Shown here piece after piece: positions 8,618 through 61,507 of a stretch of 64,000 nt of DNA. The notes under the pieces are model-generated. The model worked only from the letters and a program-made list of their open reading frames with translations. It did not search any database and had not been told where the DNA came from. Each line of letters opens with the position of its first letter. Within the stretch, counting starts at the first letter, position 1. Location: assembly GCF_054482595.1 (NCBI RefSeq), contig NZ_CM137008.1; one strand, given 5' to 3'. A program made the translations under genes and the position numbers.

Positions 8618-8675
8618 AAAAAGGGCGGCAGAGCAGTCACGGAGTAAAACTGATACCGCCAAACGTCACCAGAAA
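8618..8675 (-). ncRNA. dicF: DicF small RNA (ftsZ-targeting sRNA of the dicB operon)
   Basis: Minus strand reads TTTCTGGTGACGTTTGGCGGTATCAGTTTTACTCCGTGACTGCTCTGCCGCCCTTTTT, matching remembered DicF with terminal hairpin and U-run. Confidence 0.7.
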
Positions 8676-13630: not shown

Positions 13631-14142
13631 GCGAGATTAATTATCAGGAAGGGCATGAAACGGCAGGGCAGGCAAAACCAGTTGCATGGCGATATCGCTA
13701 CGTGAAAAAAGGCGTTACGGACTTTCAGGAGAAGATGTGGGTTGGTGACTGGAAATATGTACCGACAAAAGAGGGGTGCAACGACAGGCCGGGCTATGAG
13801 ATTCAGGCCTTATTCACTACCCCGCCAGTCCCTGTGATATCAGAAGGACTGGTTAAAGCCGTGCGCTTTTATGAACAGGTAAAGCGTGAGAATCCACCAG
13901 TCGAAACAGGAGCATGGAAAGATGCTGTTGATTGGGTACTCAAAGAGGCCTGCTGTGCTGTCATTCTGGGTAAAGCCGACAATCCACTAGCATCCAGTAA
14001 TCAGGTTGGCGAATTAACAATGTGGGTTAAACGACTGGTCAGTCAACTGAAAAAAGCTAATCCAGACTGCAAATTACCGGAGATGGCGATGGATTACCTG
14101 AAACGAAATGGACTGATAAGCGTGGAGGATGTTTTACGATGA
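13627..14142 (+). CDS. Hypothetical protein
   Basis: 171 aa; translationally coupled to neighbours. Confidence 0.5.
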   Translation: MSEINYQEGHETAGQAKPVAWRYRYVKKGVTDFQEKMWVGDWKYVPTKEGCNDRPGYEIQALFTTPPVPVISEGLVKAVRFYEQVKRENPPVETGAWKDAVDWVLKEACCAVILGKADNPLASSNQVGELTMWVKRLVSQLKKANPDCKLPEMAMDYLKRNGLISVEDVLR

Positions 14143-14222
14143 CCTGGCCTGAGGCATTTACAACGGCAGGAATCGCAATGGCTGTGGCGCTGGTGGTGTA
14201 TTCGATTTGCCGCTGGGGATAA
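14139..14222 (+). CDS. Possible 27-aa hydrophobic peptide
   Basis: MTWPEAFTTAGIAMAVALVVYSICRWG; ATGA overlap with upstream gene; single predicted TM segment. Confidence 0.25.
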   Translation: MTWPEAFTTAGIAMAVALVVYSICRWG

Positions 14223-14376
14223 AAACGGTTTGCGGGAAAAGGAGAGTTAAGTAGAATTGCAGCGGGTGCTTGAGGCTATCTGTCTCAGGCATGAACACCA
14301 AAAGGCAGATAGAGAAAAGCCCCAGTTAACATTACGCGTCCTGCAAGACGCTTAACATTAATCTGAGGCTCAATCT

Positions 14377-14589
14377 ATGAACGGCAAATCTAGGTTAGCC
14401 TCTTACGTGCCGAAAGGCAAGGAGAAGCAGGCTATGAAGCAGCAAAAGGCGATGTTAATCGCCCTGATCGTCATCTGTTTAACCGTCATTGTGACGGCAC
14501 TGGTAACGAGGAAAGACCTCTGCGAGGTACGAATCCGAACCGGCCAGACGGAGGTCGCTGTCTTCACAGCTTACGAACCTGAGGAGTAA
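14377..14589 (+). CDS. mok: Mok-like leader ORF, in-frame N-terminal extension of hok
   Basis: 70-aa ORF MNGKSRLASYVPKGKEKQA... continuing into the Hok reading frame. Confidence 0.45.
   Translation: MNGKSRLASYVPKGKEKQAMKQQKAMLIALIVICLTVIVTALVTRKDLCEVRIRTGQTEVAVFTAYEPEE
14434..14589 (+). CDS. hok: Hok/Gef-family type I toxin
   Basis: 51 aa MKQQKAMLIALIVICLTVIVTALVTRKDLCEVRIRTGQTEVAVFTAYEPEE; complementary mRNA end elements at 14263-14276 and 14639-14653. Confidence 0.8.
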   Translation: MKQQKAMLIALIVICLTVIVTALVTRKDLCEVRIRTGQTEVAVFTAYEPEE

Positions 14590-14732
14590 GAGACCTGGCG
14601 GGGGAGAAATCCCTCGCCACCTCTGATGTGTCAGGCATCCTCAACGCACCCGCACTTAACCCGCTTCGGCGTTTTTTCCGTTGATTAACTCTAGTTATTA
14701 GAGAACCGAACTTTTATTGATGGGGCAGGGAG

Positions 14733-15125
14733 ATGAAGAAACTTGTTTTAGTCGCAGGTGTAATGATTGCAACAGTAATGTTGGGAGGGTGTGCAGCAAA
14801 GGTCGATCCAGCGTTGAAAGCAGAAGCAATGAAGCCACTAACATGTAATGATGAAAAGCAATGTGACTTTTATTGGAAACGAGCGCAATTCTGGTTGGCT
14901 AATAATTCCTCATGGAAAATTCAAACGGCGACAGACACGCTAATTTCCACTTATAATCCCTCTCCAAATAGTCCATTCCTCGCTTATCAGGTGAGTAAAA
15001 TGCCAAATGAAGATGGATCCTCAAGAATTTTCATCAAGCCTTTTTGCGATAATATGTTTGGCTGTCAACCAAACCCCTATCAGGCAGTTGTTTCCTTTAA
15101 AAACTTCGTTAAAACAGGGCAGTAG
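14733..15125 (+). CDS. Lipoprotein of unknown function
   Basis: 130 aa; signal peptide with lipobox LGGC; four further Cys; followed by terminator-like hairpin. Confidence 0.55.
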   Translation: MKKLVLVAGVMIATVMLGGCAAKVDPALKAEAMKPLTCNDEKQCDFYWKRAQFWLANNSSWKIQTATDTLISTYNPSPNSPFLAYQVSKMPNEDGSSRIFIKPFCDNMFGCQPNPYQAVVSFKNFVKTGQ

Positions 15126-18018: not shown

Positions 18019-18094
18019 GGCCCTTTAGCTCAGTGGTGAGAGCGAGCGACTCATAATCGCCAGGTCGCTGGTTCAAATCCAGCAAGGGCCACCA
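18019..18094 (+). tRNA. tRNA with CAU anticodon (Ile2/Met-like)
   Basis: GGCCCTTTAGCTCAGTGGTGAGAGCGAGCGACTCATAATCGCCAGGTCGCTGGTTCAAATCCAGCAAGGGCCACCA. Confidence 0.8.
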
Positions 18095-18095
18095 A

Positions 18096-18172
18096 CCGCC
18101 ACTAGCTCATCAGGAAAGAGCGTCAACCCTTTAAGTTGAGTGTGCGAGGTTCGAGTCCCCGGTGGCGGTCCA
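18096..18172 (+). tRNA. tRNA, anticodon read as UUU (Lys) but loop atypical; identity provisional
   Basis: Acceptor CCGCCAC/GTGGCGG, D and T arms, encoded CCA; anticodon loop CCTTTAA with C at position 33. Confidence 0.55.
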
Positions 18173-18174
18173 GT

Positions 18175-18250
<76 letters not shown>

Positions 18251-18253
18251 TAT

Positions 18254-18328
<75 letters not shown>

Positions 18329-42259: not shown

Positions 42260-42843
42260 TGGCATTCAGAATGAGTGAACAACCACGGACCATAACAATT
42301 TATAATCTGCTGGCCGGAACTAATGAATTTATTGGTGAAGGTGACGCATACATTCCGCCTCATACAGGTCTGCCAGCAAACAGTACCGATATTGCACCGC
42401 CAGATATTCCGGCTGGCTTCGTGGCTGTTTTCAACAGTGATGAGGCATCGTGGCATCTTGTTGAAGACCATCGGGGTAAAACAGTTTATGACGTGGCATC
42501 AGGGAACGCGTTATTTATTTCTGAACTCGGCTCATTACCGGAAAATGTTACCTGGTTATCCCCGGCAGGGGAGTTTCAGAAGTGGAACGGCACAGCCTGG
42601 GTGAAGGATACGGAAGCAGAAAAACTGTTCCGGATCCGGGAGGCGGAAGAAACAAAAAACAGCCTGATGCAGGTAGCCAGTGAGCATATAGCGCCGCTTC
42701 AGGATGCTGTAGATCTGGAGATCGCAACGGAGGAAGAAAACTCGTTGCTGGAAGCCTGGAAAAAGTATCGGGTGTTGCTGAACCGTGTTGACACATCAAC
42801 TGCACCTGATATTGAGTGGCCGGAAGAACCAGACACAATGTAA
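42259..42843 (+). CDS. tfa: Tail fibre assembly protein
   Basis: 194 aa; start overlaps stf stop (ATAATGG). Confidence 0.7.
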
Positions 42844-52663: not shown

Positions 52664-53292
52664 TATGTATTCCCTTGTGATTATAATCTTCATGAATATA
52701 TCAATAAGTGCCGTTATCCAAAAAAAAGCACATTTGGATACTATTCTATGAAGTTCATTTTATTTTAAAGATTACATGTAACAAATGTATTTAAAAGATT
52801 TCAAAATGTTTCTAATCTATTTAATATAATTTAGAATTATGAATTCTAAATATAAATATTCATGAAAATTATAAATGTATATCAATATGTTATGAGTTGA
52901 GCGGAAGCATAGGGGGTATCAATGATTGTTGCGCCAAACGGCTGGTGTGATCACGCGCACATTAATGAAGGCATAAAAAAAAGCCGGCATCATGCCGGCC
53001 CAAAAAATATAAACAAGACGATAAAAGGCTAATAACGGAGGCATCATGACACAGAAAAATAAAAAGGTATAATTGTATTCAGTGCTAATATATTGATTAA
53101 ATGAATTAATAAAGCCGATCTCAAAGATAAATAAAATCGCTCAAAACGATTTTTCCTGTATTCACTGCCGTTGCGCAAAAATTATCTATTTGTTCAAAAA
53201 ATGAGTGAGTCTTGACTGGCTCATCCAATGTGGAAAAATGTGACTTTTATCACATAATAGTACTAAGTCTGAATTTTCCGGGTTATCTCAAA

Positions 53293-61420: not shown

Positions 61421-61507
61421 AACACATCAGATTTCCTGGTGTAACGAATTTTTTAAGTGCTTCTTGCTTAAGCAAGTTTAATCCCGACCCCCTCAGGGTC
61501 GGGATTT
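61421..61507 (+). ncRNA. dsrA: DsrA small regulatory RNA
   Basis: AACACATCAGATTTCCTGGTGTAACGAATTTTTTAAGTGCTTCTTGCTTAAGCAAGTTTAATCCCGACCCCCTCAGGGTCGGGATTT matches remembered DsrA including terminator. Confidence 0.85.

Follow-up and report, generated by a model that had tools for sequence, protein, structure and literature searches.

Known hok/mok/sok loci

Hok/sok is a textbook type I toxin-antitoxin system. The experimentally dissected paradigm is the hok/mok/sok (parB) locus of plasmid R1, which is plasmid-borne and brings about post-segregational killing. For this locus, a metastable structure of the nascent transcript has been described (PMC9841398), and the hok mRNA is known to lose 39 nt at the 3' trimming step (PMC1635323). 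E. coli K-12 carries the hokC/mokC/sokC locus (gef), with sokC annotated antisense to the mok start and an IS186 element downstream of hokC. It also carries hokD (relF) in the Qin prophage, which has been inactivated by a genomic rearrangement (PMC12214031) and shares with relBE a transcript that starts at an upstream promoter (PMC3598666). The HokD protein of K-12 is reported to be toxic when overexpressed, and hok genes are four-fold enriched in prophages (bioRxiv 10.1101/2025.08.07.668861). The Tyr47 codon of hokD is a TadA editing site that gives the conserved Cys, with 6% of the K-12 hokD mRNA being edited (PMC12214031). The MokW/Hok genes of Stx-converting and other lambdoid phages (PHROG 251) belong to the same gene family and are carried by the same type of element.

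A complete hokD-type locus in a lambdoid prophage

The window (the whole 64-kb stretch of DNA analyzed in this study) represents an E. coli lambdoid prophage, and positions 14252-14677 very probably hold a complete hokD-type member of the hok/mok/sok family, being an accessory gene of this Qin-like prophage. The locus is situated in the early-right region and has the orientation of the early-right genes. It is preceded by the DicF RNA (8623-8674, minus strand) and, upstream of hok, by a cI/Cro-like switch, replication genes and nin-like genes. Downstream follow DUF968, RusA, the antiterminator Q, a tRNA cluster, holin, lysozyme and terminase. The prophage thus has a holin, lysozyme and spanin cassette of its own. 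No terminator-like site was found upstream of hok. The likely role of the locus would be prophage stabilization and/or abortive infection.

The preliminary description had recognized a complete hok/mok-type type I locus with a 51-aa Hok toxin and an in-frame leader, and both parts of this description are borne out. The toxin frame and the in-frame ATG at 14377 are present (Table 1), and the 70-aa ORF that starts there matches the Pfam family HOK_GEF (PF01848) with an E-value of 3.5e-23 over the entire model. Hok proteins (PF01848) are characterized by a size of about 50 aa and a single transmembrane helix. The 51-aa toxin is 100% identical to K-12 HokD/RelF and matches PHROG 251 (‘MokW-like host killing’) with an E-value of 2.8e-33. 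The NCBIfam subfamily and HokA models gave E-values of 5.7e-13 and 2.6e-10, which are both sub-threshold, the scores of 48.5 and 40.2 bits lying under the curated cut-offs of 73 and 89 bits. The assignment to Hok therefore rests on Pfam, PHROGs and the exact identity to HokD.

At the RNA level, Rfam family RF01794 (‘sok’, CssrC) was found on the plus strand at 14264-14439 with 112.4 bits (gathering score 59), covering model positions 1-157 of 157. We should note that the consensus of this family corresponds to the 5' end of the hok mRNA up to the hok start codon, so the match detects the hok leader and not the Sok RNA. The alignment includes the tac stem and the hairpin formed by the Shine-Dalgarno sequence and dcb. 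Together with the R1-like fold switch described below and the RefSeq annotation as hokD, these matches support the reading as a hok/mok/sok locus.

The locus is an ordinary hok/mok/sok module that has been catalogued before and is nothing new in kind, since the module itself is textbook knowledge and the gene already bears the name hokD. A 521-nt query covering the locus found matches in 4942 out of 5426 complete E. coli genomes. Among the matches listed, at least 15 RefSeq records were 100% identical. The only annotation under the matched region is ‘hokD: type I toxin-antitoxin system toxin HokD’, and the CDS is called hokD in thousands of RefSeq genomes. No mok or sok features are annotated in RefSeq at the locus. 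Among phages, 102 records contain the locus with 93-100% identity, Stx-converting phages being among them, and Escherichia phage vB_EcoS-689R5 carries an identical locus (100%). The gene appears in the phage records as ‘host killer protein’, ‘HokD toxin’, ‘MokW’ or ‘mok/hok’. The discovery value is consequently small, given that hokD has been named and the prophage enrichment of hok has been described. The practical value is one of annotation, since nothing but the CDS of 156 nt is marked in public records. The functional unit spans about 430 nt, with mok, the predicted Sok gene and the end elements of the RNA all belonging to it.

Comparison with the hokD, hokC, R1 and phage loci

One of the closest known relatives is hokD of the K-12 Qin prophage. 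Its DNA is nearly identical from the hok Shine-Dalgarno sequence (around 14420) through fbi to the terminator, and it lies in the same type of neighborhood, flanked upstream by the dicF-dicA/dicC side and downstream by the Q side. K-12 hokD has, however, lost everything upstream of the hok Shine-Dalgarno sequence (promoter, tac, ucb, mok start, Sok gene and dcb) and has relBE there instead. Because the similarity starts only at about 14420 and relE lies upstream in K-12, the locus in the window is the complete form, of which K-12 keeps the 3' two-thirds, in agreement with the rearrangement (PMC12214031) and the relBE co-transcription (PMC3598666) reported for K-12 hokD. It thus shows the truncated K-12 hokD as it was before relBE replaced the regulatory half. 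Conversely, K-12 hokD retains the full terminator stem that the locus in the window has lost.

The hokC/mokC/sokC locus is about 74% identical over the whole locus. Its 5' end is almost identical (GCGGGTGCTTGAGGCT.TCTGTCTCAGGCAT) and its mok has the same leader of 19 codons in frame with hok, but it has a Sok hairpin that is shorter by about 16-18 nt, a different recognition region and another toxin variant. The R1 locus shares the order and spacing of the elements, the 19-codon in-frame mok leader with a GAGG ribosome site, and the internal mismatch of the tac stem. The dcb and the hok Shine-Dalgarno sequence are identical in both, the predicted Sok promoter lies where that of R1 does, and fbi is located about 50 nt past the stop codon in each. 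The toxin of R1 differs in sequence while belonging to the same family. In contrast to R1, the locus described here is prophage-borne and has a weak terminator. The MokW/Hok phages differ from it only by allele, namely in the recognition patch, the mok frame and the terminator.

Table 1. Features of the hok/mok/sok locus (window positions) and the basis of each assignment.
Feature	Position	Strand	Basis or remark
Weak -35 candidate, TTGCGG	14230-14235	+	Region not conserved in relatives
hok/mok promoter -10, TAGAAT	14252-14257	+	Position homologous to TATAAT upstream of K-12 hokC
Full-length hok/mok mRNA (predicted, ~414 nt)	14264-14677	+	Rfam start; U-tract after CGC-UUCG-GCG hairpin
tac, translational activator element, GGGUGCUUGAGG	14264-14275	+	Pairs with fbi in full-length and with ucb in truncated mRNA
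Partner of tac in metastable nascent hairpin	14282-14292	+	Nascent fold
ucb, anti-Shine-Dalgarno box, AAGCCCCAG	14317-14325	+	Pairs with mok Shine-Dalgarno in full-length and with tac in truncated mRNA
mok Shine-Dalgarno, GAGG	14365-14368	+	8 nt upstream of ATG 14377
mok ORF, 70 aa (19-codon leader in frame with hok)	14377-14589	+	ORF list
dcb, downstream complementary box, GCCUC	14398-14402	+	Pairs with mok Shine-Dalgarno in truncated fold
hok Shine-Dalgarno, AAGGAG	14419-14424	+	Read from sequence; overlaps predicted Sok -35 on opposite strand
hok (hokD) toxin ORF, 51 aa	14434-14589	+	PF01848; identity to K-12 HokD
Stable 3' UTR hairpin, 10-bp stem	14596-14619	+	Present in all folds
fbi, fold-back inhibition element, CCUCAA-C-GCACCC	14639-14651	+	Pairs with tac
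hok terminator, CGC-UUCG-GCG then U6	14662-14677	+	Hairpin fold; weakened allele
Predicted Sok promoter (-35 TTGCCT 14420-14415, 17-nt spacer, -10 TAACCT 14397-14392)	14392-14420	-	Positional homology
Predicted Sok RNA, ~77 nt	14309-14385	-	Ends projected from K-12 sokC annotation

Pairing of the mRNA ends

The nearly perfect complementarity between a 5' and a 3' element of the transcript, pointed out in the preliminary description, was confirmed with one correction. The 3' element CCTCAACGCACCCGC is indeed found at 14639-14653, but the 5' element GCGGGTGCTTGAGG is located at 14262-14275 and not, as reported there, one position further at 14263-14276. All 14 out of 14 positions pair, with a single bulged C at 14645. 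RNAduplex gives -26.9 kcal/mol for the full elements. In 5000 shuffles of the 88-nt 3' UTR that preserved the dinucleotides, no duplex was this stable. The conserved 12-nt core (14264-14275) reaches -21.1 kcal/mol, which was attained by 4 out of the 5000 shuffles. When both strands of the window were divided into 2906 tiles of 88 nt, the only tiles that matched equally well held the true site or, trivially, the antisense of the element.

Pairing between both ends is also found 47-54 nt past the stop codon in the intact hokC, K-12 hokB, the R1-type plasmid hok and six further hokD-type loci. In hokB, tac carries C instead of U at position 7 and A instead of G at position 12, and fbi is altered to match. 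An alignment of nine leaders yields a consensus tac stem in which three pairs are changed on both sides, one of them being the change from U-A to C-G at tac/ucb in hokB. The same tac base covaries with both of its alternative partners, fbi and ucb. The evidence of covariation for tac/fbi is taken from hokB, hokC and R1, since tac is invariant within the hokD-type loci: it shows no change in 74 full-length relatives from viral contigs with an identical toxin, and the variation of fbi among them is limited to the bulged C and to changes that G.U pairing can accommodate.

The outermost pairs (14262-14263 with 14652-14653) are variable in relatives, and the base following CCC in fbi is G, A or C. 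These two pairs are probably located upstream of the transcription start, for which we take G14264 as the probable position because RF01794 starts there, it lies 7 nt after the -10 hexamer and the two outer pairs are not conserved. Conservation among 55 relatives extends to the -10 hexamer but not to the -35 region.

Fold switch of the hok mRNA

Folding of the transcript, suggested in the preliminary description as a check, gives a minimum-energy structure that contains the pairing of the 5' and 3' ends (14262-14677; z = -6.8). The transcript from 14264 to 14677 folds at -162.5 kcal/mol, and the long-range tac-fbi interaction comprises 12 conserved pairs and one bulge in the minimum-energy fold. 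In this full-length structure, tac (14264-14275) is paired with fbi (14639-14651), the region of the mok ribosome site (14363-14369) is paired with ucb (14319-14325), and the hok ribosome site is paired as well. Removal of about 40 nt, which leaves a 3' end at 14625-14636, changes the predicted fold: tac now pairs with ucb (14317-14323) and the mok ribosome site with dcb, resulting in a hairpin with an apical loop at 14381-14388. The predicted switch after removal of about 40 nt compares with the 39 nt lost in R1. In the nascent fragments 14264-14300 and 14264-14316, tac is paired with 14282-14292 at -17 kcal/mol, in line with the metastable hairpin known from R1 (PMC9841398). All three alternative states (full-length, truncated and nascent) were thus recovered in silico by energy minimization. 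The dcb box is invariant across hokD, hokC, hokB and R1. By analogy with the R1 model (PMC1635323), the 3' UTR hairpin at 14596-14619 is the likely roadblock to 3' exonucleolytic trimming.

Reading frames of mok and hok

The mok gene consists of a GAGG ribosome site, an ATG located 8 nt further and 19 in-frame codons up to the hok ATG. An ORF starting at the mok ATG reaches the hok start in all 74 relatives, with its frame relative to hok varying. In 54 of them it is an in-frame ORF of 70 aa, 17 have a 19-codon ORF with a TGA that overlaps the hok ATG (ATGA), and the remaining three encode 68 aa in another frame. That the ORF always reaches the hok start fits translational coupling rather than a function of the Mok peptide; the frames thus fit a model in which the act of translation matters and not the Mok protein.

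HokD has a Tyr where other Hok proteins have a Cys. In the window, Tyr47 is encoded by TAC followed by G (14572-14575). A tRNA-like local hairpin around Tyr47, of the kind targeted by TadA, was not predicted by simple folding.

The predicted antisense Sok gene

A Sok-like antisense RNA had been expected opposite the leader in the preliminary description. This expectation agrees with a hairpin followed by a U-tract on the antisense strand (z = -4.7 for the wider segment) and with promoter-like hexamers at the positions known from R1 and sokC, while the minus-strand scan for consensus promoters was negative. The predicted RNA begins with a tail of about 14 nt, to which a long hairpin (14371-14317) followed by UUUUCUCU is joined; its 3' end is U-rich, and it folds at -33 kcal/mol. 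Its length of about 77 nt, compared to 64 nt in R1, is explained by a hairpin that is about 16-18 nt longer here. In the refolded mRNA, the apical loop (14381-14388) is complementary to this 5' tail.

The putative promoter TTGCCT-17-TAACCT aligns with TTGCGC-17-TATCCT of the R1-type locus, and its hexamers end 7 nt ahead of where the annotated sokC of K-12 has its 5' end by homology. We infer Sok promoter activity from this correspondence. A scan of 14100-14800 on both strands for consensus promoters and terminators returned no hit, with the hok and Sok promoters and the hok terminator all scoring below the thresholds. These elements were therefore assigned by positional homology.

Proposed mechanism

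The anatomy given above comes from the present analysis; the dynamics would be those established for plasmid R1 (PMC9841398, PMC1635323). The weak promoter with the -10 hexamer TAGAAT would drive the synthesis of a stable mRNA that starts at G14264 and is about 414 nt long, with a local hairpin holding tac during synthesis. In the finished RNA, tac (14264-14275) would be paired with fbi (14639-14651) and ucb (14319-14325) would mask the mok ribosome-binding site, so that both ribosomes and Sok are excluded. Slow 3' exonucleolytic trimming by about 40 nt, halted at the 14596-14619 hairpin, would take away fbi. As a next step, tac would take ucb, and the mok ribosome-binding site would enter the dcb hairpin, the loop of which (14381-14388) presents the presumed Sok target. 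Opening and translation of hok would need translation of mok. Sok, an unstable RNA transcribed from the minus strand (14385 to 14309, about 77 nt), would bind this loop by its 5' tail and block mok, upon which RNase III would cleave the duplex. Once Sok synthesis stops, either by loss of the element or by a shut-off of host transcription, the stored mRNA would be translated and the 51-aa membrane toxin would kill the cell. We should note that some observations speak against the full mechanism, specifically the weak matches of both promoters, the negative consensus scan, the terminator stem of only 3 bp, the sub-threshold NCBIfam matches and the Tyr that HokD has in place of the Cys of other Hok proteins, given the editing level of 6% in K-12 (PMC12214031).

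Alternative explanations

The simplest objection, that the complementarity of the ends has arisen by chance and the toxin frame is a spurious small ORF, has practically no probability left. Nothing but the short length of the elements speaks for it. No shuffle out of 5000 matched the pairing, the site is the only one of its kind in the window, and both Pfam and Rfam recognize the locus. Four branches of the family moreover keep the pairing with covarying bases, and we consider the chance reading refuted by this conservation together with the shuffle test. A role of hok in the lytic program, in which antiterminated early-right transcription would read through the gene on induction and Hok would help to kill or permeabilize the host, is highly improbable as well. 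It would agree with the co-orientation of hok with the early-right genes, with the lack of a terminator-like site upstream and with the co-transcription of the rearranged K-12 hokD with relBE (PMC3598666). However, the locus retains a -10 hexamer of its own, the whole tac/fbi/ucb/dcb apparatus and the predicted antisense gene, all of which a simple lytic gene would not need, and the prophage already has its holin, lysozyme and spanin cassette.

More weight, while still unlikely, has the reading that the locus is structurally intact and yet a functionally quiescent, hitch-hiking remnant, which would not kill upon loss of Sok and would play no part in the life of the prophage. Expression that is too low, a damaged terminator or a toxicity that is weak without RNA editing would be the cause. 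The chromosomal hok loci that were tested indeed gave no post-segregational killing (bioRxiv 10.1101/2025.08.07.668861), the promoters are weak, and the terminator (-3.1 instead of -12.3 kcal/mol in relatives) is a variant seen in only 3 out of 81 loci. In addition, Tyr47 requires TadA editing to become the conserved Cys, with an editing level of 6% in K-12 hokD (PMC12214031). On the other hand, all regulatory elements are intact and most of them are invariant in the 74 relatives, while the flanks and the recognition patch vary freely, and this invariance amid free variation indicates purifying selection. The toxicity of the HokD coding sequence on overexpression and the four-fold enrichment of hok in prophages (bioRxiv 10.1101/2025.08.07.668861) also argue against quiescence, as does the occurrence of the exact allele, 100% identical, in at least 15 RefSeq genomes and a sequenced phage. 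The preferred reading remains that of a complete hok/mok/sok member serving as an accessory gene of the prophage.

Recognition patch and terminator of this allele

The leader is nearly invariant among the 74 loci except for a single hypervariable patch (14370-14391), of which 17 alleles were found. The patch spans the surroundings of the mok start together with the first codons, corresponding to the 5' tail of Sok and the loop it recognizes. As a tentative explanation, this variation could be due to diversifying selection that keeps Sok/hok pairs orthogonal to each other. If so, each prophage in a polylysogen would keep a private addiction or defense switch. The patch alleles of co-resident hokD copies differ in four out of four checkable genomes. 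With about 87% of random pairs expected to differ in any case, this comparison is without statistical power. The hypervariable patch and the variable mok frame are minor observations that could be used in studies on the specificity of antisense recognition or on translational coupling. A 9-nt perfect inverted repeat (14204-14212/14382-14390) was considered as an extra pairing and rejected as a chance occurrence, about 0.5 such repeats being expected in 521 nt and the first arm lying outside the transcript.

The terminator stem of this allele is reduced to CGC/GCG (3 bp, -3.1 kcal/mol), compared to CCCGC/GCGGG (-12.3 kcal/mol) in relatives. With a stem of 3 bp, both the position of the 3' end and the processing kinetics may be different from R1. 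The weak terminator resembles a 7-nt deletion relative to the related locus L010.

Variation in the hok leader

When loci that encode the identical toxin are compared, the hok leader contains a sole hypervariable patch, which corresponds to 14370-14391 of the window (viral-contig relatives L013-L092). Across the 26-nt stretch surrounding the mok ATG, these relatives carry 17 alleles. The patch coincides with the predicted 5' tail of Sok and with the target loop of that tail. Co-resident hokD-type copies differ in the patch in four out of four genomes, a comparison without statistical power. The position of the mok start codon is constant in all hokD-type loci compared, while the register between the mok and hok reading frames varies (L076, L012, L025, and others versus window 14377-14436). 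The in-frame form of 70 aa is found in 54 hokD-type loci; 17 encode a 19-codon mok ORF whose stop codon, TGA, shares bases with the hok start codon (ATGA), and three encode a 68-aa ORF in another frame.

Some viral contigs (L058, L069, L073, and L088) encode a K-12-like relE-hokD fusion without the leader or the Sok gene. In L020 and L064, the leader upstream of the hok Shine-Dalgarno sequence is swapped for another, different replacement. These two kinds of replacement indicate repeated loss of the leader, each time at the same junction.

The hokD locus in a record named ‘Actinobacillus phage vB_Apl-pPE4’ (PP818812.1; H100 in the phage-record search) is 97% identical to the E. coli window locus, which is unexpected given a Pasteurellaceae host. 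The host of this record may be mis-assigned, or the record may be contaminated.

Terminator and Tyr47 codon

The hok terminator of the window allele (14662-14677) has a stem of only 3 bp (CGC-UUCG-GCG followed by U6; -3.1 kcal/mol); in most relatives, the stem is 5 bp long (-12.3 kcal/mol). The shortened stem appears to result from a 7-nt deletion, and read-through of this weak terminator could extend to the ORF at 14733.

The hokD mRNA is reported to be edited by TadA (A-to-I) at the TAC codon of Tyr47 followed by G, which replaces Tyr with a Cys that other Hok proteins conserve (PMC12214031). The window has the same TAC and subsequent G at 14572-14575, and no tRNA-like local hairpin was predicted at this site.

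Neighboring ORFs and Rfam matches

The two ORFs flanking the hok locus are listed below, together with Rfam matches elsewhere in the window. The 27-aa ORF (MTWPEAFTTAGIAMAVALVVYSICRWG) has no family match, and the 171-aa ORF upstream of it belongs to PHROG 660 (function unknown). The 3' end of the 27-aa ORF lies just short of the hok promoter. For the 130-aa ORF, the annotation is ‘hypothetical protein’, and its PHROG match is 16082 (function unknown).

Rfam matches and flanking ORFs in the window
Feature	Position	Strand	Remark
DicF	8623-8674	-	Rfam match
27-aa ORF	14139-14222		Hydrophobic; start codon in ATGA overlap with upstream 171-aa ORF
130-aa ORF	14733-15125		Immediately 3' of hok; lipoprotein-type signal (…LGGC)
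Four-tRNA cluster	18019-18325	+	Rfam match; 3' of Q antiterminator gene
IS009	42602-42800	+	Rfam match
rseX	52976-53065	-	Rfam match
DsrA	61421-61507	+	Rfam match

The Rfam model RF01794 (‘sok antitoxin’) matches the plus strand at 14264-14439. Since this model represents the leader of hok mRNA in the sense orientation, beginning with tac and ending at the start codon of hok, the match identifies the hok leader and not the Sok RNA strand. The presence of both rseX and DsrA in the window indicates that the prophage adjoins the chromosomal dsrA/rseX region.
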